Position numbers and translations under genes: made by a program
The notes under the pieces: generated by a model
Told to the model about the DNA's origin: nothing
The model's input: only the letters and a program-made list of their open reading frames with translations
Database searches by the model: none
In this document: positions 18,824 through 34,707 of the stretch, one piece after another
Layout: each line of letters starts with the position of its first letter
How positions within the stretch are numbered: the stretch's first letter is position 1
Source: a phage
Assembly: GCA_020773975.1 (NCBI GenBank)
Contig: GCA_020773975.1_3638.1
Reading direction: 5' to 3' (one strand)
DNA: 64,000 bases

Positions 18824-19513
18824 TTACACTTTAATAATCGGTTCAACAAAGGTAATTGGTTTCATAATTTTACCATTACCATCCATAAAGGCAACACGTT
18901 CACCTACCTGAACATGGATTACAGAATTATAACGTCCTTTTGAACGCCGTTCAATCTCTTTGCATTCAAACTCCAACATCTCCAGTTCTTTATCCTTGTA
19001 GTCAGGATATTTAACAAGTAGTTGTGTGATTGTTGGGAACTTAGAGTCGTTAGAATTAAGAACCTCTTCCATATTATACCCAAGATTGATATCCAATTTA
19101 TAGCATAAAGCCACAACTTGTTTCAAAATCTCAGCATAATCAGAGATTTTCAACTTATCTTTATGTACCAAGTCAAGCAAACTACCGATTTGCAACTCAA
19201 CCGTGTCTGAGGGAACCATGCATGACTCCCATTTTTCAGTGTCCCACTGCACCAAACGCAAAGCGTAAGAGCTTACGACAAAAAGATCACAGGCTGCATC
19301 AATAACCGCTGCCTTGTCGGATGATGATAAGGCTTCAATAAGCTCAGAAAGCTCCTCTTTAATAAGATTTGTTTGTAGTTTAATATCTGTTGACATCCCA
19401 CCACGACCAATTCTTGCCACCTCATTCCATTTGGCAACACGATGACCATATGCAATCATGTTATCAGGCTTGCTCATGGTTTCAAGTGTGGAATACATAT
19501 TTTTTAAATTCAT
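18824..19513 (-). CDS. Putative MazG-like nucleotide pyrophosphohydrolase
   Basis: EExxE...D pattern (LIKEELSELIEAL ... DAACDLF); weak. Confidence 0.3.
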   Translation of the reverse strand: MNLKNMYSTLETMSKPDNMIAYGHRVAKWNEVARIGRGGMSTDIKLQTNLIKEELSELIEALSSSDKAAVIDAACDLFVVSSYALRLVQWDTEKWESCMVPSDTVELQIGSLLDLVHKDKLKISDYAEILKQVVALCYKLDINLGYNMEEVLNSNDSKFPTITQLLVKYPDYKDKELEMLEFECKEIERRSKGRYNSVIHVQVGERVAFMDGNGKIMKPITFVEPIIKV

Positions 19514-19522: not shown

Positions 19523-19894
19523 TTAATTTACTGCATCTGGTATATGATCACCATCTGGTTGATCACGAATTATTCTTAGAGGTAACAAAGCACCATTTTT
19601 TCCTGTGAACAGACATTTATCTGCATAGCTACCATTCTTGTACCAAGAGTATGATGTATTAACTTTATAAGTCATACCATCAAACTGGCAAGCAACAGTG
19701 TTAATTATTGGCCTAATAAGACAAAATGTAAGGATACCAATAACAACAAACCATGCGATAATAATCTTGCGAATATTTGGTTTTACCCAATCAATAAAAT
19801 CATCTAATTTATCCCGTCTGAACCTATATGCCAGATACACACATACAGAGAACAGTATAGTAGTCAGTAGAACGAACACCCAATACCAAATCAT
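19523..19894 (-). CDS. Membrane protein
   Basis: Two or three predicted transmembrane helices. Confidence 0.35.
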   Translation of the reverse strand: MIWYWVFVLLTTILFSVCVYLAYRFRRDKLDDFIDWVKPNIRKIIIAWFVVIGILTFCLIRPIINTVACQFDGMTYKVNTSYSWYKNGSYADKCLFTGKNGALLPLRIIRDQPDGDHIPDAVN

Positions 19895-19906: not shown

Positions 19907-21232
19907 TTAATATATAGGATCCCACGTCAAAGAATCTACCTCACGAACACATTTGCCAACAGGAAATTGCGGAACACCGTCATCGGTCCTTGCTTGGTAT
20001 GTAAAAGTTATATACTTGCCGATAAGTTTTTTCATATTCTCTTGTGAGCGTTCTTCGTGTGTGCCTCTCATCTTACAGTTAAATTGTGTACCATCCTTCT
20101 CAGCACACAACAGGACACCTTCTCCATTCTTATCCTCAAAGGAATCAAGAACTCTGGCCTCACCATCCTGAAACAATTTCCACTTTTGAAGATCAGACGA
20201 TCTTTGTCCAAACTCATACTTTCCGTGAAAGTTCCTTATTACAACACCCTCATAACCTGCTTCCATGAACTCACTGATAAGCATCTTAACACGATCCTCA
20301 CCAGATACAATTGTTCCGTGTACCACTTTAATTAGGTGATGAGGCCACGCATATTCAGATACTTTCTGTAAATTATTAAACCTACACTTGTTTGTGTCAG
20401 AAGACATCCATGGTGTGTCATCTTCCGAAGGGATATCGAAAATATGATATTCTAAGTCTAAACTTGAATAACCACAATACTTATTAATATTTTTCTCTGG
20501 TTTCTTTGTGATAGGATGTTCTAACCCTTCGGAGTCTTTCCAAAATTCATCACCATTGTTAATTGCTTTTTCAAATCGCTTTATGTCTGATTGATAGTCT
20601 TTTTCTATCTCACACTCTATCTCTTCTGGTGTTCTCCATTTCTTAGCCAAAGAGACTATTTTCTGGAGACTTAACCCATGAATATACAACTCACCATCAA
20701 ACATTTTCAACCCTGTCTTTTTGGCTAGCTTAGACATCTGATCAAGCAATTGGCCTTGTACAGGATATGTTTTATTGCCACGACTATTAAACACAGGTAC
20801 ACCATCATCACCAACAAGAACAAGTGCTCTGACACCATCGAGTTTTGGTTGAACATGCACAGGGTACACTAAAGAGCTTTTCCTTTTAATAGCATCATGT
20901 GCAAGCATTGGTGAGAAATCTTGTGTTTTTGTAAGATCATCCTTTGATACACGATACCCAAGGCGTACTTGTTTTTCCCACTTAGATTTTGCCTCCAAAA
21001 CAGCTTGTTCTGTATCAGTTGTCTCATTTTTCTTACCGATGTTTTTGGCAAAGCATTTTGTGCGTTTATACTGCATTTTACCGTTTTCTTTACCAAACTC
21101 AACAACAGTTTCTGATCCATCTACCCACACATTCCACACTTGATATGTACCATCCCTGTTTATGGCGTACAGTGTTGGGAGGTTATTTTCAAGCATTAAA
21201 TACCTCGCTTGTGACAACAGATTTTCCTTCAA
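19907..21232 (-). CDS. ATP-dependent DNA ligase
   Basis: Motif I KLDGVRAL (KxDG) and nucleotidyltransferase architecture; 441 aa. Confidence 0.65.
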   Translation of the reverse strand: MKENLLSQARYLMLENNLPTLYAINRDGTYQVWNVWVDGSETVVEFGKENGKMQYKRTKCFAKNIGKKNETTDTEQAVLEAKSKWEKQVRLGYRVSKDDLTKTQDFSPMLAHDAIKRKSSLVYPVHVQPKLDGVRALVLVGDDGVPVFNSRGNKTYPVQGQLLDQMSKLAKKTGLKMFDGELYIHGLSLQKIVSLAKKWRTPEEIECEIEKDYQSDIKRFEKAINNGDEFWKDSEGLEHPITKKPEKNINKYCGYSSLDLEYHIFDIPSEDDTPWMSSDTNKCRFNNLQKVSEYAWPHHLIKVVHGTIVSGEDRVKMLISEFMEAGYEGVVIRNFHGKYEFGQRSSDLQKWKLFQDGEARVLDSFEDKNGEGVLLCAEKDGTQFNCKMRGTHEERSQENMKKLIGKYITFTYQARTDDGVPQFPVGKCVREVDSLTWDPIY

Positions 21233-21974
21233 GGTGATTCTCTACCAACTCGATAAGTTTTTGGTTGCTGAATGCTTCAACTGCTCCACAGCGCATTTGG
21301 TACACACCATATTTATCATACTGCTCTTGTTCAAAGTAATTGATCGCTGGGTTTATTACAACCAGTTTAATACCTCGTTTTGCGATTGCATGCAGCAATT
21401 CCCAGTTAAAGTCGATAACCTGATTAGAGCAGCCAACCAGAAGTACAAGATCTTGAGTATTCAAGTCATCAAGCATGGTAAACATGTCCTGATAAAGTGG
21501 TGCATTCTCACCGAAAAATACCACATTTGGCTTGCACCACCAGTAATCATCAGGGTCAACAACCGCATATCCGACATCAATCACACGTTTAGGAAACTCT
21601 TCACCATTCTGTACAACAAGCTCTTTGAGAAAACCATGTACATGGAGAATATCCTTCTTTTCAATGCCAGCACGTTCAAGCAGATCGTCAACGTTTGTCG
21701 TAAGATTACGTACTTGTCCAGGATAACGGTTATACCATTCTGCTACACGAAGATGTGCCATGTTGGGATGAACAGTCTTCAATTCTTCACGGCGTTTGTT
21801 ATAAAATTCGTGTGTTTTGTGATAGAAATTGCCACGAAATGCATGGATATTGCACACCTCTTCAAGATCATATTCGTCCCAGAGGGCTTTACCTGACGAA
21901 GTATCTGTACGGAATGTACGAATACCGCTTTCTGTTGACATACCTGCACCACTAATCACAAGTAATCGACGCAT
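21189..21974 (-). CDS. Sir2-family (sirtuin-like) NAD-dependent protein
   Basis: Canonical Sir2 NAD-binding motif GAGMSTESGIRTFR near the N-terminus; 261 aa. Confidence 0.7.
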   Translation of the reverse strand: MRRLLVISGAGMSTESGIRTFRTDTSSGKALWDEYDLEEVCNIHAFRGNFYHKTHEFYNKRREELKTVHPNMAHLRVAEWYNRYPGQVRNLTTNVDDLLERAGIEKKDILHVHGFLKELVVQNGEEFPKRVIDVGYAVVDPDDYWWCKPNVVFFGENAPLYQDMFTMLDDLNTQDLVLLVGCSNQVIDFNWELLHAIAKRGIKLVVINPAINYFEQEQYDKYGVYQMRCGAVEAFSNQKLIELVENHLEGKSVVTSEVFNA

Positions 21975-21982: not shown

Positions 21983-22390
21983 CTATTGTAATTTTAAAGA
22001 GTTACGTAAACGTGCTTCTTGACGATCACGAATAAACTGCGGGACATCATGAATGCTTTCGTTACCATGATAATTTTCCACAACTACAGATGTTACATCA
22101 TAGCAGTACCTTTCTGCTAAGTCAAGATAAGGTTTTAACTCTTTTACAGAAGTTGTTGTGTTTGAAACAATAACCTTTTCAACTTCATTCTGCATGTGGA
22201 GTTCTACTTTGTCACGACACCATTGATGAGCTTTGTGGACATTTTCTTCCTTCCACTCATACACACCTTCTTCGGTGTAATGAAATTGGTCAGCTTCGCA
22301 TACAGGCCAACGACCACCATCAGCCAACTCTTTAGCCAAAGTTGACTTTCCTGACCCAGAAACACCACGTAAAATAAATAACTTTTTCAT
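21983..22390 (-). CDS. P-loop kinase (polynucleotide-kinase-like)
   Basis: Walker A GVSGSGKST; 135 aa. Confidence 0.45.
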   Translation of the reverse strand: MKKLFILRGVSGSGKSTLAKELADGGRWPVCEADQFHYTEEGVYEWKEENVHKAHQWCRDKVELHMQNEVEKVIVSNTTTSVKELKPYLDLAERYCYDVTSVVVENYHGNESIHDVPQFIRDRQEARLRNSLKLQ

Positions 22391-22400: not shown

Positions 22401-22733
22401 TTAGTATTGGTGGCGGTAGAATTTTATACCTAGAGTATTTTCAAAATATTCTCTCGCCAACATGAATTTGTTCACAGCAGATGGATTAGAGCTATGTACG
22501 TGAATCTCCTTAAGATTCATAAACTTACCATCATGAAGCTCACGTTCAATATAGATGAAAGCATCGTAACCTTCCTCATCACCACCCAAGTCATTATCAA
22601 AATGGATGGAATCAATGTCACTATCACTCATAAATTTTAGTAATGAGTAGAAGCTAGAGAGATTCTTACACCATAAGGCATTAGGGTATCCATAATCTAC
22701 TGGATTTCGCAGATCATCCAACCACAGTTTCAA
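22401..22733 (-). CDS. Hypothetical protein
   Basis: ORF only. Confidence 0.3.
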   Translation of the reverse strand: MKLWLDDLRNPVDYGYPNALWCKNLSSFYSLLKFMSDSDIDSIHFDNDLGGDEEGYDAFIYIERELHDGKFMNLKEIHVHSSNPSAVNKFMLAREYFENTLGIKFYRHQY

Positions 22734-23662
22734 ATTGTACCTCCGAAAAAATCCTCAATGATTTCACGACGGAATTGTTCATGCAAACATTCCCAATGTT
22801 CTTTAGAATAGTTATCACGCAAATAGTTTAGAAGTTTATAATACTCTTCGTCAACTTTCTTCTTAGCTTCTTCTGGATTTCCCCAAATCATATCCCACTT
22901 GTTCTTACCACCACGCATCAAGAATTTCTTCGCCAAATAGTGTGGAGATTTTATTTTCAATAGAAGATCTTGTTGCCCTGTGGCAGCACGTACAACAAAT
23001 CCCTCATGTTTGCATTCCTTAGACATTTTAAGGATGTCTGAAAAGTGCATATTTATGTAAATCTCCGGTCGTTTAAAACCGAACTCTTTTGCGATAAGAT
23101 CAAGAGCTTTTTCACTAAGCATAGAAGTTAATTTGTCTTTGTGAAAGCGAACACCAATCAAATACACACCAGATTTTTCAGGTACAATGTGTGGATCTGA
23201 AGGAGCACAAATCTCAAAGATAAATGTTGTCTTTGGTTCTTCCACACATGATAACAACATTGGCAAATTAGTACATTCAGCCATAATCATGCCTTTTGCA
23301 AGTTTTGCAAAATCTGAATCTAAAGTTCCTGTTGTTGAAACAATTAGCTCACCATTGTATGAGCTTACTGCTGCCATAAAGCCATTAACTTTACGTGCTG
23401 CATTTACAGCCATATCTTTTGGCAGGTCAGTACCGTTCTCTAAATGATTGAAAATCTTTGTAAAAGGCCAAACAATAATGTTGTCATCACTGTCCACAAC
23501 CATACCACGGCAATCAAGTAAGCGACTGTCTTGATCCCACAAGTTTTCCCAGAAAACTTTGTTACTGTATTTCAAAACAGACAAACCTTTAAACTCACCA
23601 CTGGTATAAGTCTTCTTTTTAACAAGACCTTTTGCCACTAAATCTTCAACATTAAATTTCAT
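22730..23662 (-). CDS. Putative RNA ligase (nucleotidyltransferase superfamily)
   Basis: KVNG (KxNG-type motif I lysine); sits with the kinase and phosphatase genes. Confidence 0.4.
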   Translation of the reverse strand: MKFNVEDLVAKGLVKKKTYTSGEFKGLSVLKYSNKVFWENLWDQDSRLLDCRGMVVDSDDNIIVWPFTKIFNHLENGTDLPKDMAVNAARKVNGFMAAVSSYNGELIVSTTGTLDSDFAKLAKGMIMAECTNLPMLLSCVEEPKTTFIFEICAPSDPHIVPEKSGVYLIGVRFHKDKLTSMLSEKALDLIAKEFGFKRPEIYINMHFSDILKMSKECKHEGFVVRAATGQQDLLLKIKSPHYLAKKFLMRGGKNKWDMIWGNPEEAKKKVDEEYYKLLNYLRDNYSKEHWECLHEQFRREIIEDFFGGTI

Positions 23663-23859
23663 AAGTCTTCACCACCACTATTGTAGGTTTGTTTATTCAA
23701 TAACTCAATTATACATAGCGATCGTCTTGCGTCAACAGATTGGCTTGTTGAGTTTTTAGCAACAACCAGCTTGTCCACATCTTCTTTCTTGATGGATCCG
23801 TAAGCACCAGAATCCATCATGAAGAATATTTTATCGTCTGTTATCTTGTATATTTTCAT
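23659..23859 (-). CDS. Hypothetical small protein
   Basis: ORF only. Confidence 0.3.
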   Translation of the reverse strand: MKIYKITDDKIFFMMDSGAYGSIKKEDVDKLVVAKNSTSQSVDARRSLCIIELLNKQTYNSGGEDL

Positions 23860-23880: not shown

Positions 23881-24459
23881 TCAATGACCATCAGCGGTGA
23901 AAACGTCTTTTTCCATGCACATTTGGTATGCTTCTGGTAGATCCAAAATTCTCCCATGTACATCCCAACCCACATCAAGGATCCGTCCTTTCGCACTGTA
24001 AGAGCCGTGGCAATGACCGTGCAAGAACACAGACCCAAAGTGGGATTTATTCCATGCGGCAAACGGATAATGACTCATACAAATTTTTTGTTCATAATCG
24101 TTAAATTCGTAATAATCGCACACATCATGACCACGTTTTTTGAATGTTTTAATCGCATCAAAATTGTCATGATTACCTTTGACAAGGACGATATGCCCAA
24201 CAAGTTCATCAAGAATTTCTTCAAGTCTTTTAATAACTTGCTTGCCATGACCGAAACAGAAATCACCAAGCACAAAAGTCACAGTGTCAGCATCTGCACC
24301 ATGGTTAAATTTCACTGTGAGGTCTTGGTTCATTTGTTCAACTGTTTTGTACAAATCACCACGAAAACGTTTTGAACTCTCAAAGTTAAGGATGTTTTTA
24401 TGCCAGTAATGTAAATCAGATGTTACACGGTATTTGGTTCCCATTTCTCTCTCCCACAC
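23881..24459 (-). CDS. Calcineurin-like metallophosphoesterase
   Basis: Motifs GD...G, GNHD and GHCHG. Confidence 0.6.
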   Translation of the reverse strand: MWEREMGTKYRVTSDLHYWHKNILNFESSKRFRGDLYKTVEQMNQDLTVKFNHGADADTVTFVLGDFCFGHGKQVIKRLEEILDELVGHIVLVKGNHDNFDAIKTFKKRGHDVCDYYEFNDYEQKICMSHYPFAAWNKSHFGSVFLHGHCHGSYSAKGRILDVGWDVHGRILDLPEAYQMCMEKDVFTADGH

Positions 24460-24469
24460 ACAACAAAAA

Positions 24470-24748: not shown

Positions 24749-25188
24749 TTTGATATTCAAGCATTTCCCCCACACAGGCAACCACGTAAATCGTGTCTGA
24801 TCACCACAACACAATCGGTTTGAAACAAACCTGTTTGACACACAACTGAATCGTCGTAGTGTCATGCCAAAACACAGACAGACATGATACGACGAAGATC
24901 CCCACACAGAGTCACATAGTGACTTGTGACAACCCGAATCCATGATTGAGATCAACACACAGAGACAAACCTGTAGGGTTTGTTGATGTGGGTTTATCTC
25001 AGAATGGCTCATGAGGGTTAGATGGTCACAAGCTATCAGCGCAGTGAGCATCTTACACACTCACGTATTGCCTGAAGAGTCTCATCGACTCACACTTTCA
25101 GGCAAAACACTATGAACTCTATGATTCGAAATCATCGAACCATACGATTCGACTCAATCGAATCATATCAACAAAAATATTTAAAATC

Positions 25189-25222: not shown

Positions 25223-25253
25223 AAATAAATTTTATATAATATATTATTATATA

Positions 25254-25510: not shown

Positions 25511-25917
25511 TCTCGGTGTTGGATTACACACCGGAGTTTGCCTTGAAATCTATTGTTGGGGGTTTCCATGTAAATCCGAAACCTGGGTCGTACATCGCTG
25601 TCCCGACAGAGTGGGTTTTTGATGAACGCTTATCACCAAGCGATCTGCAAAGACTGATACGCTTGTTGTGGAGGTACGAGTATTTCAAGAATCTGAACCC
25701 TCTGGGTGGGGAACTGGTATTCTTTCCGTCACAACAATCCTTGTGTGGCCTGTTGGGGTGGAATGAAAACTCACGAACCAAAGTGTCTGAATTTCTGTCC
25801 CGGATGGAGAGCTTTGGTTATATCAGGCGTGTTAGATCAGGATTTCAGGATTCTGATGGTAACGTGAAACCAAGAAATTATATTATCGTCAATCGTATCA
25901 GAGGGGATAAATCATGA
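25492..25917 (+). CDS. Hypothetical protein (true start probably TTG ~25543 after GGAG)
   Basis: The ORF-track start lies inside the promoter spacer. Stop overlaps the start of the next gene. Confidence 0.35.
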   Translation: MGLWVAFSVLDYTPEFALKSIVGGFHVNPKPGSYIAVPTEWVFDERLSPSDLQRLIRLLWRYEYFKNLNPLGGELVFFPSQQSLCGLLGWNENSRTKVSEFLSRMESFGYIRRVRSGFQDSDGNVKPRNYIIVNRIRGDKS

Positions 25918-26723
25918 ATATTCGTTTGAGTTTGAACAAGCTACATGTGCCAGTTGACCATTTCACATTTAGTGGTGGTGAGGAGCAGATTAAGATCGAT
26001 ATGCGTCATGTTCCGCATGGTTCGATAGGTTTTGTTGATATCTTCGCTAGACTCAAGAACTCACAGGATGTGATGTGTTTGGCACTGCTTGTTGATGCAG
26101 TTAATCGTCTTGGCAATTTGGATGTTGGTGTGGAAAAGGTTTTACACCTGCCGTACATTCCGTATGCTCGACAAGACCGAGTTATGAACCCTGGAGAATC
26201 TCTGTCGGTGAAAGTCTTTGCCACAATGATTAACTCGCTTGGTTTCCACAAAGTCATCGTCGATGATCCACACAGTGACGTATCCGCAGCACTGATTGAT
26301 AACGTGAAAATTCGTTCTCAGACTGATTTGTTCTTGAACATGAATTTTGATTTTGATCTGCTTACGGACGAATCGCTTGTGTTGGTTGCTCCAGATGCAG
26401 GTGCACGCAAGAAGACCCAGAAGGTTGCTGATACCTTGGAACTATCTGTGGTTGAAGCAGGTAAAGTCCGTGATGTTTCGACAGGGGCAATCACAGGTAC
26501 AACAGTGTTTGGTGATGTCGATGGGAAGACATGCCTGGTTGTCGATGATATCTGCGATGGTGGGTTTACGTTTACAAACTTAGCTCAAGCCTTGAAAGCT
26601 GCTGGTGCAAAACGTGTTATTTTGTATGTTACGCATGGAATTTTCTCTCGTGGGAAAGAATTTATTCTCGACGGTGGTGTTGACGAAATTTATGCGTATT
26701 ACGACTGGACAGAAAATTTTTAA
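25914..26723 (+). CDS. Ribose-phosphate pyrophosphokinase (PRPP synthetase) family protein; candidate ADP-ribose pyrophosphate synthetase
   Basis: Prs motifs PYARQDR and PRPP-binding VDDICDGG; 269 aa. Confidence 0.65.
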   Translation: MNIRLSLNKLHVPVDHFTFSGGEEQIKIDMRHVPHGSIGFVDIFARLKNSQDVMCLALLVDAVNRLGNLDVGVEKVLHLPYIPYARQDRVMNPGESLSVKVFATMINSLGFHKVIVDDPHSDVSAALIDNVKIRSQTDLFLNMNFDFDLLTDESLVLVAPDAGARKKTQKVADTLELSVVEAGKVRDVSTGAITGTTVFGDVDGKTCLVVDDICDGGFTFTNLAQALKAAGAKRVILYVTHGIFSRGKEFILDGGVDEIYAYYDWTENF

Positions 26724-26788: not shown

Positions 26789-28504
26789 ATGCTTCACAAA
26801 GAAAGTCCATTGCTGTTTGCAGATTTTTATAAACCAAGTCACATCTCGATGTACGACAAACGTTCACAGTTTGTTCAAGACAACATGACACCACGCAATG
26901 CGAAACACTTTGTACACTTTGCAGATGATGACCATCGTGTGATGTTTGCTGGTCTTCAGGGATTTATCAAGTGGTTCCTGATTGACATGTTTAATAATAA
27001 TTTCTTTGCTTTACCGAAAGAAAAGGCGATTCAGGATTACAAAGAGATTTGTGATTTGAGCATTGGGAAGGATGCTGTTGAAACTTGGGGTTTTGAGAGA
27101 TTGCATGATCTTGGCTATCTCCCAATTGAAATTAGAGCCTTGCCTGAAGGAACTCTTGTTCCTGTTCAGGTTCCTATGTTCACGATTCAGAATACGCACC
27201 CTGATTTTTACTGGCTGCCAAACTTCCTTGAGAGCGTGATCTCCTCGGAGACTTGGAAGACAATTACCACGGCAACGACTTTCTGGCAATACCGTAAACT
27301 ATCAGAACTGTGGGCAAAGAAAACATGTGATAACAACGATCACGTTCCTTTCCAGAACCATTGTTTTGCATACCGTGGTGAAGCTGGAACACATGACGCA
27401 GCACAGAGCGAATTTGGGCAACTGATTAGCTCAATGGGCACAGATACAATTCCAGCGATTGTTTACGCAAATCGCTATTACAACATGAAAGGTCGCTTTG
27501 TTGCTGGGTCTATTCCCGCATCTGAGCATAGCGTAGCGACAACGAACATTGGTTTTATTGTTGAGCGTATCCAGCAGGAAAATCCTGATATGTCGCTTGC
27601 TGAAGTACGTTTTCGTGCTGAAGTTGAGTTCTTAAAGCGTTATGCAACAGAGATTTTTCCGTCAGGCTATGCTTCATACGTCGCAGACAGCTATGATTTT
27701 TGGGCAATCATTACACAGGCAGCCAAAATCCTGAAAGATGAGATTATGTCTCGTGATGGCAAGCTGGTCTTTCGACCGGACAGTGGGATCCCAGAGCACA
27801 TTATTGCTGGCTATCGTGTGTGCTCCCAGGAAGAATGGGCAACTGGTCAGTGCTGTGATATGGATGCTGTGCTGTTTAAAAATGGCAAATATGTCACTCT
27901 GCACGAGATGTCCAGAGACACTTCCTGGATGCGAGATTCGGAAGGAAACCTCGTAGATTGGAAATCTTTGACAGGTGATGAGTTTACAAATTATCTGACC
28001 AAAGAGGAGGTTAAGGGTGCTGTACAATGCTTGTGGGAAATCTTTGGTGGTAGTGTAAACTCTTTGGGTTACAAAGTTCTTGATAGCCATGTTGGTTTAA
28101 TCTACGGAGACTCTATCACAATCTCTCGTGCTAAAGAGATCTTTGAGCGCCTTGAAGAACGAGGCTTTGCTTCCAGCAACATTGTGTTTGGTGTAGGATC
28201 TTATACAACGCAATATACAACTCGTGATTCTCTTGGGATGGCTGTAAAAGCTACTGGTGCTGTGATTGATGGCAGACAAGTAATGGTTGTAAAAGAGCCT
28301 AAGACTGATCTTGGGAAGAAATCTGCGAAAGGTTTTGTTAAAGTTATTCGTGGTGATGATGGTGAGTTGAAGCTGGTAGATAATCTTGGTATTAATCAGG
28401 TATCTGACCCTGATAACGAGCTTAGAACAGTTTTTGTTAATGGTAAGCTGCTTGTGGATGAGGATCTTGAAGAAATTCGCCAAAGAGCTTTGTCACAGCT
28501 TTAA
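26789..28504 (+). CDS. Nicotinamide phosphoribosyltransferase (NAMPT) family protein; candidate nicotinamide ADP-ribose transferase
   Basis: 571 aa with type II phosphoribosyltransferase features; directly downstream of the Prs-like gene. Confidence 0.6.
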   Translation: MLHKESPLLFADFYKPSHISMYDKRSQFVQDNMTPRNAKHFVHFADDDHRVMFAGLQGFIKWFLIDMFNNNFFALPKEKAIQDYKEICDLSIGKDAVETWGFERLHDLGYLPIEIRALPEGTLVPVQVPMFTIQNTHPDFYWLPNFLESVISSETWKTITTATTFWQYRKLSELWAKKTCDNNDHVPFQNHCFAYRGEAGTHDAAQSEFGQLISSMGTDTIPAIVYANRYYNMKGRFVAGSIPASEHSVATTNIGFIVERIQQENPDMSLAEVRFRAEVEFLKRYATEIFPSGYASYVADSYDFWAIITQAAKILKDEIMSRDGKLVFRPDSGIPEHIIAGYRVCSQEEWATGQCCDMDAVLFKNGKYVTLHEMSRDTSWMRDSEGNLVDWKSLTGDEFTNYLTKEEVKGAVQCLWEIFGGSVNSLGYKVLDSHVGLIYGDSITISRAKEIFERLEERGFASSNIVFGVGSYTTQYTTRDSLGMAVKATGAVIDGRQVMVVKEPKTDLGKKSAKGFVKVIRGDDGELKLVDNLGINQVSDPDNELRTVFVNGKLLVDEDLEEIRQRALSQL

Positions 28505-29415: not shown

Positions 29416-29488
29416 GGCCCCTTAGCTCAGTGGTTAGAGCAGGTGACTCATAATCGCTTGGTCGCTGGTTCAAGTCCAGCAGGGGCCA
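29416..29488 (+). tRNA. tRNA-Met (anticodon CAT; could be initiator, elongator or lysidine-modified Ile2)
   Basis: Cloverleaf by eye: acceptor ggcccct/aggggcc, anticodon loop cuCAUaa, T-loop ttcaagt, 3' CCA encoded. Confidence 0.75.
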
Positions 29489-29543
29489 CCAAATGTGGCA
29501 CACGAAATAAACTAGGTTTATTGTTTTCGGAGGAGAAAACTTA

Positions 29544-29867
29544 ATGGCTAAGAAACAGTCTGCTAAAAAGGTATCAGCTATCGAGGCGATCAAGCAACCT
29601 TTTCAGTTTGAATCAAAATCCACGCAGACACATTCTGCACCGCACGATGTGCGTCTTGGTGGCAAAACGCAAACTGTAGCAGTTCTGAAAAAACGCAAAG
29701 ATGAAGACGGTAATACTGAAATGTATTATGAATCTGTGTCTCGTGTCATTGGTGGTGAAGTGATTTCTGCTTCCTATCGTATCCGTACTGGGAAAACAAA
29801 GCGTGAACGAGAAGTGAAACAGAAAACAAGCACTCCTGTAGAAAACGTTAAGAAAACTAAAAAATAA
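29544..29867 (+). CDS. Hypothetical basic protein
   Basis: ORF with RBS; lysine-rich. Confidence 0.35.
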   Translation: MAKKQSAKKVSAIEAIKQPFQFESKSTQTHSAPHDVRLGGKTQTVAVLKKRKDEDGNTEMYYESVSRVIGGEVISASYRIRTGKTKREREVKQKTSTPVENVKKTKK

Positions 29868-29943
29868 TTTACTGACGAGAGTGCCACCGTGAGCCAGCGT
29901 CATTAAACAAAGGGAATCACGGACATTCAGGAGGGTTGAGATT

Positions 29944-30138
29944 ATGATAGGATCTTTGCTTAAGATTGCAAGCGATGTAACAACAACGGCTGTTGAAGTG
30001 ACTGCTGCGGTAACAACTCCGTTTGTTGATTTAGCATCAGATGCTATAGCAGCAGCAGCAGACGAGATGATTTTGTCACCGACATCTGATCTTGTCCAAG
30101 ATCTTTGTGATTCTATAAAAGATGCTGTAAAAGATTAA
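29944..30138 (+). CDS. Hypothetical small protein
   Basis: ORF only. Confidence 0.3.
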   Translation: MIGSLLKIASDVTTTAVEVTAAVTTPFVDLASDAIAAAADEMILSPTSDLVQDLCDSIKDAVKD

Positions 30139-30211
30139 AATTTTTCTTGACATAGTTTTTGTTTTTCTGTATAGTTACTTTATCAAAGCTAATTTACATA
30201 TGAGAGATTGA

Positions 30212-30859
30212 ATGTCTACTAAGATTTCCGTAACTCGTGCACTTGCTTCTATCTCTAAGATTGAAGATAAGATCAATAAGCGTATTTATAACCTTGAATG
30301 TATTAAGATTGCAAAAGGAACTGAGAATAATTGTAAGATTCCTGGTTATATCGGCTCTGTTGATGATTTTAAGAAATCTGCGATCAACGACTATCAAAGT
30401 CTGCAAGACCTCTTGGCAGTTCGCGATGAACTGAAGGCAAAAATTGTCAAGTCTAATGCTGAGACAATTGTCAAAATTGGTAAGGTGTCTATGACAGTTG
30501 CTGAGGCAATCGAACGCAAACGGACGATTTGCTTTAAACAAGAGTTGTTAAACAAACTTTGTGCACAGCGTGCTTCTGCACAGCTTCTTCTGGCAAAAGA
30601 AGAAAAATCTCTGGAAGATAAACTTGAAAATGCCAGAGCGCCATATATCCAACGTGATAAAGCGCCAGATGCAGAGCAGATTAAGACTGTGGAAGCTCCC
30701 ATTCGAATGATGAACACACCATCGGTTGTGGATCCTCTTGAACTGGCTTCTAAGATTCGTTCTCTTGAAGAAGAGATTGAAGATTTCTTGTCTAACGTTG
30801 ATTTTGCGTTGTCTGAGTCAAACGCTAAGACAGAAATTGAGATTGAGCACTCTCTCTAA
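30212..30859 (+). CDS. Hypothetical protein (coiled-coil)
   Basis: ORF only. Confidence 0.35.
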   Translation: MSTKISVTRALASISKIEDKINKRIYNLECIKIAKGTENNCKIPGYIGSVDDFKKSAINDYQSLQDLLAVRDELKAKIVKSNAETIVKIGKVSMTVAEAIERKRTICFKQELLNKLCAQRASAQLLLAKEEKSLEDKLENARAPYIQRDKAPDAEQIKTVEAPIRMMNTPSVVDPLELASKIRSLEEEIEDFLSNVDFALSESNAKTEIEIEHSL

Positions 30860-31224
30860 AAGGCTCTGATAATATCATTATCGTTCCTTTGTTTTGAAAT
30901 TTAAAACATTGCTTTTGATTAACGAAGTTTACATCATCTTGCCTCCTGGGGATTGGAGGTTAAATATTCCCCACCATGTATCGTATATGTATGAGGATAA
31001 TACAGGACATAGATGCAGCGAGGCACACTAAGATGCCTTGTTGTTTCTACTAAGTAAAAGTTCATACAATAAAGGTCAATGGTCAAATGTAAAAGATGAA
31101 ACTTGAAAGTTAATTCTTGAAAGATAAAATTTCGTTTATCATCTGAAATCCTTGGCACAGGTTATGGCTCACAAGATATGGTCTGTAAAGCCTCAAGGCT
31201 GTTAATCGGAAGCAATGTCTTATT

Positions 31225-31296
31225 GCTCGTATAGCTCAACGGTAGAGCACCTGCCTTGTAAGCAGGGGGTTGCAGGTTCGAAACCTGCTGCGAGCA
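31225..31296 (+). tRNA. tRNA-Thr (anticodon TGT)
   Basis: Anticodon loop cuUGUaa, T-loop ttcgaaa, CCA encoded. Confidence 0.7.
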
Positions 31297-31301
31297 CCAA
31301 T

Positions 31302-31398
31302 GCTGGGTAAGCCCCTTGGCAAGGGCGAGGATTTATAATCCTGAAAATAGACGGGCTAGCCGTTGAATACATAGGTGGTTCGATTCCATCGCCCAGCT
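31302..31398 (+). tRNA. Atypical tRNA-like gene (~97 nt; canonical acceptor and T-arm, anticodon not confidently assignable)
   Basis: Acceptor gctgggt/gcccagc and T-arm ggtgg-ttcgatt-ccatc are canonical; the central region holds the palindrome aggatt-TAT-aatcct and a hairpin acgg-gctag-ccgt. Confidence 0.35.
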
Positions 31399-31598
31399 AC
31401 AAGTTTGTTTTATAGTGTATTAGCTTATATTATTCGATATAAATGCCTGATCAGCATTTGTTGGGAATGAGGCATACAATGCGTGAGAAAGCTATCGGTG
31501 CGCAACGTTGATTTCAAACGTATTCATGCTCGTAGAGCACCAACTGTGGAAGTTGGGGTGAGGTTGAGTAACCATACACTATAAAGCATTCTTATTCT

Positions 31599-31672
31599 CG
31601 GGGTGTAGCTCAGTTGGATAGAGCAGCGGCCTTCTAAGCCGTAGGTCACAGGTTCGAATCCTGTCTCCTCGA
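31599..31672 (+). tRNA. tRNA-Arg (anticodon TCT)
   Basis: D-arm tagctcagttggatagagca, anticodon loop cuUCUaa, T-loop ttcgaat, CCA encoded. Confidence 0.7.
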
Positions 31673-31751
31673 CCAGATTAACCCCAACTTGAGAATCGTC
31701 AGCGCGGCTCGTAAGACCCACTCTATAGGTTCTCTACTCGGGGTACTTATT

Positions 31752-31825
31752 GCACGGTTGCCGGAATTTGGTTACGGGTCTGTCTGCAAAACGGATATAT
31801 GTCGGTTCAAGTCCGACACCGTGCT
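31752..31825 (+). tRNA. tRNA-Cys (anticodon GCA)
   Basis: Acceptor gcacggt/accgtgc, anticodon loop cuGCAaa, T-loop ttcaagt, CCA encoded. Confidence 0.6.
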
Positions 31826-31865
31826 CCAAACTTTCAATTTCTTGGTAAATATGTTAAAATACCAC

Positions 31866-31894
31866 TTGACAGATATGTTTTTATTTGATAATAT
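31866..31894 (+). promoter_or_regulatory. Sigma70-like promoter (TTGACA-17-TAATAT)
   Basis: Near-consensus hexamers with 17 bp spacer ~20 nt upstream of the RBS/ATG at 31914. Confidence 0.55.
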
Positions 31895-31913
31895 CATTAA
31901 GTGGGGTTTTAAA

Positions 31914-32261
31914 ATGGCTACCAAGCAGCTTACAAAACGTAGAAGAGGAAAAGGTCGTCCTCTGAAAGAGGAATCTAATGCAATTCAGTTAGAGAAAAAT
32001 ATCCTAGATTTGAAAACGAATCTGATTGCAATGATTCCTGAAGCTCATCAGGTTCTTAGGGATTTGATGAAGAATGTGAATACAAAAGACAATATCAGAG
32101 AAAATATCGCTCGTTATGTTATTGAGAAAGGTGAGCAGATGCTTTCTGATTACTTTGATGAGGAAAACGAAGAGTTACTCGAAAAAGATAACTCAGAAAA
32201 AGCTCCTATTAAGGCAGCTAAACCATTCTCGACGGATATTGTTCAATTCAAACAAGGTTAA
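31914..32261 (+). CDS. Hypothetical basic protein (115 aa) inside the tRNA array
   Basis: ATG with upstream promoter; the longer ORF-track start at 31689 overlaps tRNA-Cys and is rejected. Confidence 0.4.
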   Translation: MATKQLTKRRRGKGRPLKEESNAIQLEKNILDLKTNLIAMIPEAHQVLRDLMKNVNTKDNIRENIARYVIEKGEQMLSDYFDEENEELLEKDNSEKAPIKAAKPFSTDIVQFKQG

Positions 32262-32262
32262 T

Positions 32263-32349
32263 GTGTCGTTAGACCGTAGGGGTAGCTGGGGAGACTGTAA
32301 ATCTCCTGTCTCGAAAGGGACTCGGGTAGTTCGACTCTATCACGGCACA
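32263..32349 (+). tRNA. tRNA-Tyr (anticodon GTA), class II with long variable arm
   Basis: Anticodon arm ggaga-cuGUAaa-tctcc, variable arm, T-loop ttcgact, CCA encoded. Confidence 0.65.
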
Positions 32350-32420
32350 CCAACTGAATCTGTACTGGCTTTGATGTGTGACGATACCCTCCAATCGTGG
32401 TTGTTGGGCCAGTACAGTTT

Positions 32421-32493
32421 GGGAGTGTAGATCAGTTAGTAGATCGCTCGACCGATAATCGAGAGGACGTAGGGGCAGAGCCTACCACTCCCA
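32421..32493 (+). tRNA. tRNA-like, apparent anticodon GAT (Ile), with non-canonical T-loop (possible pseudo-tRNA)
   Basis: Acceptor gggagtg/cactccc, anticodon arm ctcga-ccGAUaa-tcgag (C33), T-arm gtagg-GGCAGAG-cctac lacks the TTCRA consensus. Confidence 0.4.
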
Positions 32494-32501
32494 CCAAATA
32501 T

Positions 32502-32573
32502 GCATCCATAGTTTAATTGGGAAAACTACAGCCTTCCAAGCTGAAGTCGAGGGTTCGATACCCTCTGGATGCT
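32502..32573 (+). tRNA. tRNA-Gly (anticodon TCC)
   Basis: Acceptor gcatcca/tggatgc, anticodon loop cuUCCaa, T-loop ttcgata, CCA encoded. Confidence 0.65.
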
Positions 32574-32687
32574 CCAGTTAAAAGATGTCAATGAAATCCG
32601 CTTGGGTCAACTGAAGACCGTAACAAATTCCATGGTGTTGTGTTTGCGGTCCAACACCAGACATCTTCTATCTATGTACAGGCTTGA

Positions 32688-33251
32688 GTGCGTATGAGAT
32701 ACTTGAAATATTTATCGTGGATTCTGTTAGCACCTCTTGACCCAATTATGTCGGTTCTATGTGTTATTCTGGCTCCTTTTGTTGTTCCGTTCTATAATGA
32801 GAAGACAGGGCATCTACCTTATATTTTCAGGTGGATGGAAACATATGATAATCCTATAGATGGTGACAGAGGACACATAGAGAGATGGGAAGAAGTCCGT
32901 AAAATAGGAAGTTTTGGTGTTTACCTACAACGAGTTGCTTGGTTGTGGAGAAATAAAGCCTACAATTTTTCCTATCACGTACTTGGACGTGAAATCACAT
33001 CTGTGACAAAGTGGAAAGGAAACATCCATGTAAGCTCTGATGTGGAGGATAATCAACAAGGCTATTTGTTGATGTGGAATGACAATGCGTGGGGTGTATT
33101 CGCGTTTGTCCCGTCTTTTAGATTGTTTGGAAAACAATTTTACTGGCGAATTTATGTCGGTTGGAAACTGAAGAGTGTGGTTCCTGAAGACAGAGCTTTT
33201 TCAAGAGAGAGAGTGATGTTGGCATTTTTCATAAGTCCTTTCCGAAAATAG
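32688..33251 (+). CDS. Hypothetical membrane protein inside the tRNA array
   Basis: N-terminal hydrophobic helices (LSWILLAPLDPIMSVLCVILAPFVVPF); 187 aa. Confidence 0.4.
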   Translation: MRMRYLKYLSWILLAPLDPIMSVLCVILAPFVVPFYNEKTGHLPYIFRWMETYDNPIDGDRGHIERWEEVRKIGSFGVYLQRVAWLWRNKAYNFSYHVLGREITSVTKWKGNIHVSSDVEDNQQGYLLMWNDNAWGVFAFVPSFRLFGKQFYWRIYVGWKLKSVVPEDRAFSRERVMLAFFISPFRK

Positions 33252-33256
33252 TTTTT

Positions 33257-33336
33257 AATGAGAGTAGCGTAACTTCACTGGGTGAAGGCTGGCCTCCAAA
33301 ACCAGTGACTAAGAGGTTCGATTCCTCACTCTCGTG
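33257..33336 (+). tRNA. Non-canonical tRNA-like gene with apparent 8-bp acceptor / 4-bp T-stem, 6-bp D-stem; possible anticodon CCA
   Basis: Hand fold: acceptor atgagagt/actctcgt, D hairpin cttcac-tgg-gtgaag, anticodon arm gctgg(c)-cuCCAaa-(a)ccagt, T-arm gagg-ttcgatt-cctc. No CCA encoded. Confidence 0.35.
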
Positions 33337-33340
33337 CAAA

Positions 33341-33413
33341 AGGGGATTAGCATAGTGGCCTAATGCAACGGGCTTTGACCCCGTGATCGGTTGTTCGAAT
33401 CAACCATCCCCTG
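33341..33413 (+). tRNA. tRNA-Gln (anticodon TTG)
   Basis: Acceptor aggggat/atcccct, anticodon arm acggg-cuUUGac-cccgt, T-loop ttcgaat, CCA encoded. Confidence 0.7.
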
Positions 33414-33425
33414 CCAAGTTAAAAC

Positions 33426-33512
33426 GGAGAAGCAAATCGATTGGCGACGAAAACACATTGGAAATGTGCTGACTGGTAAAACGGATTGAGAGTTCGATTC
33501 TCTCCTTCTCCG
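33426..33512 (+). tRNA. tRNA-Ser (anticodon GGA), class II
   Basis: Acceptor ggagaag/cttctcc, anticodon loop uuGGAaa, long variable region, T-arm gagag-ttcgatt-ctctc, G73, CCA encoded. Confidence 0.6.
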
Positions 33513-33549
33513 CCAGTTTTTAATTACTAAGGTATTGGAAGATTAACCC

Positions 33550-33627
33550 TAATTTGGTAAGGGGTCTCCCTGCTGAGGAGATAGTAACCCAGAAATGGGT
33601 GTGACAGTTCGATTCTGTCAGCCTCCT
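33550..33627 (+). tRNA. tRNA-like element with canonical T-arm, acceptor 3' strand and CCA but non-canonical 5' half (GNRA hairpin where the anticodon arm should be)
   Basis: T-arm gacag-ttcgatt-ctgtc, then agcctcc-t-cca; upstream hairpin accca-GAAA-tgggt. The 5' boundary is uncertain. Confidence 0.3.
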
Positions 33628-33857
33628 CCAAGTTATCTTTAATGTAGCTTGTTATTCTTACTTTAGCAGAGTAAATCTTCGGCAAGTGGCGGTAACCACT
33701 TTACCGATACCCCAGAGCAGTCCGCTCTTTACTGGCGTAAGTCAAACACTCATGATGGTCATGTAATCGTAATCTATCATTAGTGTGCCCTCCCTAGAGG
33801 GCTGTTGCGTATAGCTAATTATGTGCGAGTAATTAGCTATTTTAAAGATAATTTAAA

Positions 33858-33931
33858 GGATCTGTAGCCAAATGGTTTAAGGCACTCGACTTTTAATCGA
33901 GGGATTGTTAGTTCGAATCTAACCAGATCCA
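33858..33931 (+). tRNA. tRNA-Lys (anticodon TTT)
   Basis: Acceptor ggatctg/cagatcc, anticodon arm ctcga-cuUUUaa-tcgag, T-loop ttcgaat, CCA encoded. Confidence 0.75.
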
Positions 33932-33953
33932 CCAAAATATTCTGGTTCTTTGA

Positions 33954-34041
33954 CCGAGTGGTCGATGGTGACGGCCTGTTAAGCCGTTGGGAGGAATCTC
34001 CCCACCGAAGGTTCGAATCCTTCAGGAACCGCCAATTCTTG
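33954..34041 (+). tRNA. Class II (Ser-like, long variable arm, G73) tRNA carrying apparent anticodon GTT (Asn codons)
   Basis: Acceptor ggttctt/aggaacc, D-arm acc-gagtggtcgat-ggt, anticodon arm acggc-cuGUUaa-gccgt, variable hairpin gggag-gaat-ctccc, T-arm gaagg-ttcgaat-ccttc, G73, CCA encoded. Confidence 0.5.
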
Positions 34042-34120
34042 ACTTAATCAAGTCACAGATATCACCTAGCCAGCGATACCAGTTAGTAGATTCTGGGACA
34101 ATTAAAATCTACATCTCTCT

Positions 34121-34195
34121 CTGTCCGTAGCGCAGCTTGGGTAGCGCGGGTCACTTGGGATGATCAGGTCGTTGGTTCAAATCCAACCGGACAGA
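34121..34195 (+). tRNA. tRNA-Pro (anticodon TGG)
   Basis: D-arm gcgc-agcttgggta-gcgc, anticodon arm ggtca-cuUGGga-tgatc, T-loop ttcaaat, CCA encoded. Confidence 0.7.
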
Positions 34196-34240
34196 CCAAC
34201 AAACATATACATATCAAAGCAGAAATGTACAGAGGATACC

Positions 34241-34432
34241 ATGTTAACAGTTAAAGTCGTATCTCCAAATGATGAACAAATTTTTTGTGGCAAAATTGTT
34301 GGGTATTGTGCTCATCAAAAGTCTATAGCTATTTCAGGTATTGACCAAAAAGTGTTTTTGTCTGAGGATCAGACAGCTTATGTTATCAATGCCAATGGGA
34401 AAACTATTTCTGTGTATCGTGGAAAACCATAA
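34241..34432 (+). CDS. Hypothetical small protein (63 aa)
   Basis: ATG with SD agagga; the longer ORF-track start overlaps tRNA-Pro and is rejected. Confidence 0.35.
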   Translation: MLTVKVVSPNDEQIFCGKIVGYCAHQKSIAISGIDQKVFLSEDQTAYVINANGKTISVYRGKP

Positions 34433-34446
34433 CTGTTGATATAAAT

Positions 34447-34520
34447 GGGCGATTGATGGAATTGGTATACATGTCAGGCTTAGAACCTGAATTTTGGGGG
34501 TTCGAGTCCCTCATCGCCTA
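34447..34520 (+). tRNA. Class I tRNA with apparent anticodon TAG (Leu codon CUA) but no long variable arm; A73
   Basis: Acceptor gggcgat/atcgcct, anticodon arm tcagg-cuUAGaa-cctga, 5-nt variable loop, T-arm ggggg-ttcgagt-ccctc, CCA encoded. Confidence 0.5.
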
Positions 34521-34528
34521 CCAATCAT

Positions 34529-34601
34529 GTGACGGTAACTCAGTTGGTAGAGTGCCTTGCTGAAGACTAGGTGGTCACAGGTTCGAACCCTGTCCGTCAC
34601 A
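34529..34601 (+). tRNA. tRNA-Phe (anticodon GAA)
   Basis: Acceptor gtgacgg/ccgtcac, D-arm actc-agttggta-gagt, anticodon loop cuGAAga, T-loop ttcgaac, CCA encoded. Confidence 0.7.
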
Positions 34602-34610
34602 CCAAATTAT

Positions 34611-34686
34611 TGCAGAGTGGTGGAAATGGATTTACCATGTTAGGTTCATACCCTGAAGATTGCAGGTTCGACTCCTGCCTCTGCAT
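34611..34686 (+). tRNA. Second CAT-anticodon tRNA (Met or Ile2)
   Basis: Acceptor tgcagag/ctctgca, anticodon arm ttagg-uuCAUac-cctga, T-loop ttcgact, CCA encoded. Confidence 0.6.
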
Positions 34687-34707
34687 CCAAGAATAAGAGA
34701 GAGTATT

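Follow-up and report, generated by a model that had tools for sequence, protein, structure and literature searches.

Why a bacteriophage should carry a sirtuin, an enzyme that consumes NAD+, is the question raised by a gene at 21189-21974 of a 64,000-nucleotide (nt) stretch of phage DNA (NCBI GenBank assembly GCA_020773975.1, contig GCA_020773975.1_3638.1), referred to here as the window. The window is from an rV5-like Escherichia phage, and the gene encodes a Sir2-family protein of 261 amino acids (aa). Phage sirtuins have been on record since the genomes of T5 and KVP40 were sequenced, and they are carried by the model phage T5 and several BASEL phages. The protein described here represents a divergent, zinc-less branch of CobB-like sirtuins. 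It lies in an operon with genes for RNA end healing and sealing, and we tentatively favor a role for it in the repair of broken phage RNA (tRNA).

Sirtuin Gene and Predicted Active Site

The gene and its assignment are as follows.

21189..21974, minus strand: Sir2-family gene, zinc-less TTNVD-type viral sirtuin, 261 aa (Pfam, PHROG, alignment, model)

The open reading frame (ORF) covers this interval exactly, opens with ATG, and has a Shine-Dalgarno-like AGGTGG immediately 5' of the start. The product matched Pfam SIR2 (PF02146) with 91.9 bits where the cut-off is 24 (E = 6.2e-26), the alignment spanning positions 1-178 of the 180 in the profile, and it matched PHROG 2162, "Sir2 (NAD-dependent deacetylase)" (E = 7.7e-101). 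Residues 9-22 are GAGMSTESGIRTFR, which shares 12 of 14 positions with the corresponding CobB motif, GAGISAESGIRTFR (two differences). These matches bear out the original prediction of a 261-aa Sir2-family protein with a canonical NAD-binding motif; the gene lies on the minus strand. By sequence, the closest solved relatives were Escherichia coli CobB (1s5p, E = 3.4e-19), Archaeoglobus Sir2-Af1 and Sir2-Af2, and SIRT5.

Residue conservation was read from an alignment of 26 diverse homologues (56-71% identity). Positions G9, A10, G11, F21, R22, Y58, R61, N94, D96, H113, G114, S183, and N208 were invariant in all 26, H113 aligned with the catalytic His of CobB, and the FGE loop (F153-F154-G155-E156) was invariant among the aligned homologues. 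Loss of the catalytic His or Asn, which the original prediction named as the outcome that would speak against it, is not seen, because N94, H113, and N208 are among the invariant residues. The Y58-x-x-R61 pattern (FYNKRR) was found in 124 of 124 close relatives. In SIRT5 and CobB, which are class III sirtuins, this Y-x-x-R pair serves recognition of acidic acyl-lysines and anion binding; in principle, the Y58/R61 pair could hold a phosphate.

An AlphaFold2 model of the protein reached a pLDDT of 89.9 and a pTM of 0.87. Its Rossmann-type large domain and its small domain superpose on CobB, Sir2-Af1, and SIRT5, and a Foldseek search against solved structures gave a top E of ~6e-18 with TM scores of 0.73-0.83 to CobB and Sir2-Af1. 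The 50 best solved-structure matches listed were all canonical deacylase sirtuins (CobB, Sir2-Af1/Af2, Sir2Tm, SIRT5, and SIRT2). The protein is a standalone 261-aa domain without a regulatory domain. It is an intact member of the Sir2 family, with the fold, the NAD pocket, and the His active site kept. The gene is under strong purifying selection: dN/dS was 0.049 relative to the 93% identical copy in phage vB_EcoM_TH18 (TH18), with 61.5 synonymous and 15.5 non-synonymous differences. An antisense ORF of 244 aa (21162-21896, plus strand) covers nearly the whole gene and is most likely a shadow ORF.

Operon Organization

The sirtuin is the sixth of nine genes in a minus-strand block with inter-gene spacing of -8 to +21 nt, in a leftward arm that also holds nucleotide-metabolism and repair genes. 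The other members are listed in block order; the sirtuin stands between the P-loop kinase and the DNA ligase.

23881..24444, minus strand: calcineurin-like metallophosphoesterase, first gene of the operon (Pfam Metallophos, 4.7e-08)
23659..23859, minus strand: small ORF, 66 aa, overlapping the RNA ligase start by 4 nt
22730..23662, minus strand: Rnl1-family RNA ligase, 310 aa (Pfam RNA_lig_T4_1, 1.4e-17)
22401..22733, minus strand: cREC (cyclic-phosphate-processing receiver) domain protein, 110 aa (Pfam PF20274 cREC_REC, 1.2e-15)
21983..22390, minus strand: P-loop kinase, polynucleotide-kinase-like, 135 aa, 8 nt upstream of Sir2 (Pfam AAA_33, 4.6e-10)
19907..21196, minus strand: ATP-dependent DNA ligase, its start overlapping the Sir2 stop by 8 nt (Pfam DNA_ligase_A_M and DNA_ligase_OB_2; TH18 annotated length)
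19523..19894, minus strand: small ORF, 123 aa, hydrophobic N-terminus (PHROG 8041)
18824..19513, minus strand: MazG-like nucleotide pyrophosphohydrolase, 229 aa, last gene of the packed block (Pfam PRA-PH, 6.9e-06; PHROG 671, 1e-23)

The neighbors of the sirtuin are families of RNA end healing and sealing. This context, with kinase, cREC, and RNA ligase genes on one side and a DNA ligase gene on the other, is the most informative feature of the locus, and it had been missed in the original prediction. The kinase also matched PHROG 2071 (2e-53) and PHROG 505, "polynucleotide kinase" (2.8e-11). The RNA ligase scored 24 bits against a cut-off of 242 for the T4 RnlA equivalog, and a sequence search gave no usable solved-structure match for typing it as T4 Rnl1-like or as Trl1-like, the type that requires a 2'-phosphate. 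The phosphoesterase start at 24444 was inferred from the 564-nt gene annotated in TH18, while the listed ORF reaches 24459 from a GTG. No macro domain was present in any scanned neighbor of the sirtuin, and no SLOG, HerA, TIR, pAgo, or sensor partner was found, either fused to it or among its neighbors.

A sigma-70 consensus (12/12) lies at 18555-18528, directly downstream of the nine-gene block. On the other side, a divergent control region of ~1 kb (24460-25500) separates the operon from a plus-strand pair of NAD+ metabolism genes described below; several promoter-like sites occur there, on either strand, along with a bidirectional hairpin (25188-25213). A GTG ORF at 24470-25060 (196 aa) is without a family match and is probably not a gene.

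Divergence from CobB and Defense Sirtuins

Canonical sirtuins, CobB included, carry a Cys4 zinc tetrad (CxxC...CxxC) in the small domain. This tetrad is absent from the window sirtuin and from all 124 close relatives; in the alignment, the corresponding region of the window protein has a single Cys, and the zinc-ribbon position in the AlphaFold2 model is a confident beta-hairpin (residues 114-133, pLDDT >90). The canonical TQN[IV]D is replaced by TTNVD in 120 of 124 close relatives, and the V-Y-P substrate-staple segment of CobB reads V-I-D/N. Among distant representatives, T-type sequences mostly lacked the tetrad (32 without, 6 with), while Q-type sequences mostly had it (57 of 82, with 25 without; Fisher p = 4e-8); by these counts, the two traits are linked. 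The distant zinc-less relatives came almost all from metagenomic contigs, and one was from a Neptunomonas metagenome-assembled genome. An earlier study had already described zinc-less Sir2 proteins in KVP40 and phiSt2 and named T5 among the homologues (Skliros et al., 2016; PMC5107563).

Scores against curated models point the same way. Three NCBIfam CobB/deacylase models (the equivalogs NF040867 and NF001755 and the subfamily NF001753) matched significantly but far under their curated cut-offs (115 vs 243, 97 vs 320, and 84 vs 318 bits). No PADLOC defense family matched the sirtuin at E<=0.01, and Pfam SIR2_2, the defense-type domain, stayed below threshold (13.9 bits against a cut-off of 24.5). 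A defense-system reading of the locus was also tried and rejected, PADLOC being without a match for the sirtuin, cREC, phosphoesterase, and MazG proteins. Because the zinc tetrad is absent, TTNVD is present, the CobB scores are below cut-off, and PADLOC and SIR2_2 do not match, the protein belongs to a divergent zinc-less branch of CobB-like sirtuins and is neither a CobB equivalog nor a defense NADase.

Relatives and Distribution

Four Escherichia phage records share 93% nucleotide identity with the region, among them TH18 (Vequintavirinae, 133.9 kb), in which the sirtuin is annotated as "NAD-dependent protein deacetylase of SIR2 family". A cluster of proteins 97% identical to the sirtuin has 82 members, on contigs of up to ~138 kb. 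Identity is 51.5% to Vequintavirus copies over the full length and 68% to KpS8, in a cluster labelled Mydovirus. An exhaustive search of 1.84 billion representatives yielded 848 clusters at E<=1e-10, of which 43 reached E<=1e-30.

By tblastn, the sirtuin family is present in 987 of 50,697 phage records (~2%), with hosts including Escherichia (373), Salmonella (289), Klebsiella (131), Vibrio (50), and others. Carriers include T5 ("cobb: putative transferase", AAX12033, 58.5% identity), phAPEC8, Mydovirus-type phages, and Vibrio jumbo phages, as well as the BASEL phages CarlMeissner/Bas48, EmilieFrey, and DaisyDussoix. For the RNA ligase, 731 phage records have a homologue, and many of these lack a sirtuin (Pseudomonas 175, Streptomyces 107, Vibrio 83); cREC occurs in 378 records.

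Gene Neighborhoods of Sirtuins and RNA Ligases

Gene neighborhoods were compared in two sets, one of 62 viral loci that encode a relative of the sirtuin and one of 79 phage loci centered on homologues of the RNA ligase in the operon. In the first set, approximately 13 loci carried RNA ligase, kinase, phosphoesterase, MazG, and DNA ligase genes together with the sirtuin, and cREC was detected in eight of these. They belong to rV5/Mydo-type phages of ~145 kb. Bas48 has the same cassette adjoining six tRNA genes. T5-like phages are the largest carrier group, and there the sirtuin neighbor is HAD_SAK_2, "HAD domain in Swiss Army Knife RNA repair proteins" (4e-20). The two genes are adjacent in 30 loci, and they are still adjacent, in reversed order, in Erwinia phage KEY. 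On a 607-kb phage contig, the gene two places upstream of a divergent homologue encodes an Rnl1-type ligase. Of two further divergent homologues, one lies directly after a true Nampt gene (locus L062) and the other before a nucleoside-deoxyribosyltransferase-like gene (locus L063).

In the ligase-centered set, 13 genomes bore a sirtuin. cREC was found in 10 of these and MazG in all 13, compared with none of the 66 others in either case. Taken together with the opposing counts given in the Discussion, these tests lend partial support to a link between the sirtuin and RNA repair.

Downstream of the sirtuin-HAD_SAK_2 pair in T5 (T5 locus 8661-9482) are two paralogous genes, each with two DUF7415 repeats. 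The DUF7415 cluster recurs in 32 T5-like loci and may belong to the sirtuin-HAD_SAK_2 module.

NAD+ Reconstitution Genes and tRNA Cluster

Two further groups of genes lie on the plus strand within reach of the operon.

25914..26723, plus strand: Prs/Adps-like gene, 269 aa, first of a NARP1-type pair (Pfam Pribosyltran_N, Pribosyltran, Pribosyl_synth; TIGR01251, 145.9 bits vs cut-off 113)
26789..28504, plus strand: Namat/Nampt-like gene of the NAPRTase family, 571 aa (Pfam NAPRTase, 2.1e-28; NF006629, 475 bits vs cut-off 405)
29416..34689, plus strand: 15 phage tRNA genes (ARAGORN)

The first two genes share a strand, are separated by 65 nt, and lie ~4 kb from the sirtuin, divergent from its operon. 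Both score above the NCBIfam cut-offs for their superfamilies. A pair of Adps and Namat is the NARP1 architecture described by Osterman et al., and the window pair has this architecture, which confirms the earlier suggestion of an NAD-reconstitution module a few kb from the sirtuin as a module of the NARP1 type. The pair is syntenic with the sirtuin in 9-10 related Mydo/rV5-type loci, which are among the ~13 with the full cassette. All three main groups of sirtuin carriers encode some means of rebuilding NAD+: NARP1 in the window, NARP3 in T5-likes, and NAMPT/NMNAT in Vibrio phages. NARP3 of the T5-likes was considered as a sirtuin partner and rejected; it consists of PnuC and NadR and is unrelated to the sirtuin.

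In NARP1 chemistry, an ADP-ribose (ADPR) cyclic phosphate arises as a by-product of ADPR-PP. Some phages add a Poa1p-like ADPR-1''-P phosphatase to NARP1, and Poa1p belongs to the yeast pathway for tRNA-splicing by-products, downstream of Tpt1. Neither of the NARP papers mentions sirtuins or cREC. A closed loop can be drawn in which Sir2 would convert NAD+ to ADPR>P and nicotinamide, cREC and then a phosphatase or pyrophosphatase would yield ADPR, and Adps and Namat would return NAD+; this loop is suggestive only.

The tRNA cluster comprises Met (two), Thr, Arg-UCU, Cys, Tyr, Gly, Gln, Ser (two), Lys-UUU, Asn, Pro, Leu, and Phe, and these phage tRNAs are potential clients of the RNA-repair operon. 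Small ORFs are interspersed among them; one encodes a DUF7338 protein (32688-33251), and another is endonuclease VII-like (34660-35133).

Other Features of the Window

Several genes elsewhere in the window appear to be interrupted. The class Ia ribonucleotide reductase alpha gene (4122-7430, minus strand) encodes 1102 aa, compared with 771 aa in TH18; because the extra segment (~aa 439-745) matches Intein_splicing and LAGLIDADG_3, the insert is an intein with a homing endonuclease. A ThyX-type thymidylate synthase ORF (8232-10118, minus strand, 628 aa) has LAGLIDADG_3 at aa 162-202, upstream of Thy1 at aa 346-485, and is probably a second case of an intein or of a homing-endonuclease insertion. 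The anaerobic ribonucleotide reductase gene nrdD is in pieces at 204-2718 (minus strand), with the ATP-cone and the start of NRDD at 2215-2718 and NRDD profile positions 263-415 at 204-722. It is likewise annotated as three separate coding sequences in TH18, and the arrangement suggests interruption by an intron or endonuclease, or decay.

An HNH_3 endonuclease gene (39804-40589, plus strand) lies directly upstream of a 261-aa ORF (40772-41557, plus strand) that matches Terminase_6C only. The ORF has the C-terminal nuclease domain alone, and the large terminase gene may be split by the mobile endonuclease. An SPFH/Band-7 protein (17067-17957, minus strand) is 86-90% identical to its Mydo-type counterpart, while operon neighbors are 37-68% identical in the same loci; this protein is either unusually constrained or recently exchanged.

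Discussion

Repair of RNA breaks may be the setting in which the sirtuin consumes NAD+. Iyer, Burroughs, Anantharaman, and Aravind (2022; PMC9503650) published the same neighborhood for phage rV5 and predicted KptA/Tpt1-like removal of RNA 2'-phosphates with NAD+, in which associated enzymes would open cyclic phosphates or process the ADPr>P product. Following their scheme, an anticodon nuclease would leave a 2',3'-cyclic phosphate, and cREC or the phosphoesterase would open the ring. The sirtuin would then move ADP-ribose from NAD+ to the residual RNA 2'-phosphate, which is the Tpt1/KptA reaction on a different fold, and the cyclic ADPR by-product would be cleared by cREC and MazG. Our own addition is that this ADPR and nicotinamide could be turned back into NAD+ by the neighboring NARP1 pair. 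The Tpt1 mechanism parallels sirtuin chemistry step for step, and KptA-like chemistry by the sirtuin is therefore plausible by analogy. In the Tpt1 reaction (PMC11417386), a phosphate oxyanion attacks C1'' of NAD+, and attack by O2'' then gives a 1'',2''-cyclic product. We consider it possible, and our preferred reading, that the sirtuin is catalytically competent and is the NAD+-consuming member of a phage RNA (tRNA) break-repair operon with a KptA-like role, and we hold this view tentatively.

A number of observations weigh against this role. In the phAPEC8-like lineage (~13 loci), the sirtuin lies among unrelated, unannotated genes ~30 kb from a cREC-phosphoesterase-ligase-kinase-DNA ligase-MazG cassette on the same contigs, and hhalign comparison of its neighbors there (clusters C11, C13, C20, and C21) with RNA-repair families gave nothing above 50% probability. 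The sirtuin is missing from 66 of the 79 ligase loci, and these keep the kinase in 56 cases and the phosphoesterase in 42; because the ligase-kinase-phosphoesterase trio persists there, the core pathway can do without the sirtuin. Most T5-like carriers are apparently without an Rnl1-type ligase, since 289 Salmonella phage records have the sirtuin and 14 have such a ligase. With E. coli KptA as query, no match was obtained in the 79 ligase loci even at E<=10, so displacement of one enzyme by the other is unsupported; this null result therefore neither supports nor speaks against functional equivalence. The co-occurrence counts ignore phylogeny. The functions of cREC and HAD_SAK are themselves only predictions, and literature searches found no biochemical or genetic test of any phage sirtuin. 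The FGE loop, part of the lysine tunnel, is retained in the protein; the basic residues conserved in the clade are ones that CobB has too, and a new RNA-binding patch was not evident. The clade is also uniformly acidic (median isoelectric point, pI, 5.2), although net charge is only a weak argument on RNA binding because the RNA ligase (pI 7.1) and kinase (pI 6.1) of the same operon are not basic either. One of the phAPEC8-like neighbor clusters, C13, resembles a C5-DNA-methyltransferase, by eye only.

The two sides can be read together. Phosphoesterase, kinase, and ligase form a widely conserved, self-sufficient heal-and-seal trio, and Sir2, cREC, and MazG are an accessory sub-module added to it in one phage group, with the reservation that counts behind this division ignore phylogeny.

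Protein deacylation deserves the most attention among the other explanations, although we judge it somewhat unlikely. The sirtuin would be a CobB-like NAD+-dependent protein lysine deacylase (deacetylase or desuccinylase) that resets the acylation state of host or phage proteins as infection proceeds; targets could be adenylate-forming enzymes such as acetyl-CoA synthetase or active-site lysines of the adjacent ligases. Its place in the operon would then be incidental or a service to those ligases. Bona fide deacylases account for all of the best matches by sequence and by fold, and no variation was seen in the catalytic His, the FGE loop, or the Y-x-x-R pair with which class III sirtuins recognize acidic acyl groups. 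For a protein-modifying enzyme, an acidic pI would be nothing unusual, and the separation of the sirtuin from RNA-repair genes in the phAPEC8-like lineage also fits. Skliros et al. (2016; PMC5107563) proposed deacetylation of a host protein, acetyl-CoA synthetase, for the zinc-less Vibrio-phage and T5 homologues, with an expression peak 20 min post infection. A generic deacylase, however, leaves unexplained the pairing with an RNA-end phosphatase in two unrelated phage lineages and the joint travel with cREC and MazG, and its product, O-acyl-ADP-ribose, would require no cyclic phosphodiesterase. The protein has also departed from CobB in several features: the zinc-ribbon Cys residues are gone in every close member, the NAD-pocket Gln is replaced, the V-Y-P substrate staple is altered, and every CobB/deacylase equivalog cut-off is missed by far (e.g., 97 vs 320 bits).

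The remaining explanations turn on NAD+ itself. An ADP-ribosyltransferase, or an enzyme generating ADPR metabolites in a conflict over NAD+, is improbable; its target could be a host protein or nucleic acid that it ADP-ribosylates, or it could work alongside cREC, MazG, and the phosphoesterase on non-canonical breakdown products of NAD+ (ADPR-1''-P and ADPR-cyclic-P), making them into NARP1 substrates. NARP1 lies 4 kb off and is syntenic in 9-10 related loci, divergent homologues adjoin a Nampt or a nucleoside-deoxyribosyltransferase-like gene, and NAD+ is rebuilt in all three main carrier groups. ADPR-cyclic phosphate is, moreover, a real NARP1 by-product, and ADPR-1P phosphatases are known as phage extensions of NARP1. 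The synteny is nevertheless limited to one phage lineage, and NARP1 occupies the opposite strand as a separate transcription unit. SirTM-type ADP-ribosylating sirtuins have an adjacent macro domain, which the window sirtuin lacks, and because sirtuins consume NAD+, the protein has no obvious place in salvage. A phage-borne NADase effector like ThsA, DSR2, or SIR2-HerA, causing superinfection exclusion or host shut-off by NAD+ depletion, is highly improbable. The absent zinc ribbon would agree with defense SIR2 domains, and the KVP40 copy was originally given a role in NAD+ hydrolysis, according to PMC5107563. Depletion would nonetheless be self-defeating, because the same genome encodes NAD+ reconstitution, and the 261-aa domain stands alone, without regulatory domain and without a HerA, TIR, pAgo, or sensor partner. 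The analogy with anti-phage NADase effectors drawn in the original prediction is accordingly set aside, given the lack of a PADLOC match, the sub-threshold SIR2_2 score, and the deacylase sirtuins that make up the best 50 structure matches listed; a phage-borne Sir2 with intact residues near NARP1 is the part of that interpretation that stands.

If the preferred RNA-repair prediction is true, sirtuin chemistry would extend from acyl-lysines to RNA phosphates, and phages would have an NAD+-dependent branch of counter-defense against anticodon nucleases that is metabolically tied to NAD+ reconstitution. More doubtful is the wider proposal that the zinc-less viral sirtuin would be the first sirtuin with a nucleic-acid phosphate as substrate and would form, with cREC, the MazG-like enzyme, the metallophosphoesterase, and NARP1, an NAD+-neutral repair cycle; with such a cycle, nuclease-cut tRNAs could be mended even while the host is depleting NAD+. 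If the protein is a deacylase, phages would be altering host acylation. The gene, its clade, its zinc-less character, and its exact neighborhood are already known from the literature and public annotation, and no new family, context, or hypothesis is offered here beyond the 2016 and 2022 papers.

Comparison with Known Systems

Defense SIR2 domains are without a zinc ribbon. The NADases that contain them (ThsA, DSR1/2, SIR2-HerA, and SIR2-APAZ) belong to the same superfamily as the window sirtuin and use NAD+ as substrate; unlike them, the window protein has a canonical deacylase-type core and is without a PADLOC match and without partner or sensor domains. With CobB and other class III sirtuins (SIRT5, Sir2-Af1) it shares the GAGxSxESGIRTFR motif, the catalytic His, the FGE loop, and the Y-x-x-R pair. 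It differs from them in the missing Cys4 zinc site, in TTNVD rather than TQN[IV]D, in V-I-D/N rather than V-Y-P, and in an overall identity of ~28%.

Tpt1 enzymes are basic, whereas the window sirtuin clade is acidic. KptA/Tpt1 is the proposed functional analogue of the sirtuin; it catalyzes an NAD+-dependent two-step reaction via a 1'',2''-cyclic species and is associated with RNA ligase, kinase, and cyclic-phosphodiesterase genes. The sirtuin is Rossmann-type and KptA/Tpt1 has an ADP-ribosyltransferase fold, so with no homology between them the sirtuin could be at most a functional analogue.

The Sir2/CobB proteins of Vibrio "schizoT4-like" phages (KVP40, phiSt2, and phiGrn1; PMC5107563) are also zinc-less, keep the catalytic His, and are co-encoded with NAD+ synthesis genes. 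At ~42% identity over ~80% of the protein they are more divergent, their context is different, and they have been read as deacetylases of a host protein (acetyl-CoA synthetase). The T5 "cobB" product (AAX12033), from the T5-like sirtuin-HAD_SAK_2 pair (type 3, phage SP15), is closer: it is of the same clade, 58.5% identical, zinc-less, and adjoins a predicted RNA-end phosphatase. It differs in that no RNA ligase, kinase, cREC, or MazG gene lies beside it and that T5-likes use NARP3, not NARP1.

The nearest published system is the type 2 neighborhood of Escherichia phage V5 and Proteus phage Mydo, with a T4-like RNA ligase, cREC, nucleotide kinase, MazG, and calcineurin-like phosphoesterase and no macro domain (Iyer et al., 2022; PMC9503650). 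Nothing essential differs, and the window is another member of this type. NARP1 was still undescribed when that paper appeared. Specific to the window are the overlap of the sirtuin stop with the DNA ligase start and the presence of NARP1 and a cluster of 15 tRNA genes within 13 kb.

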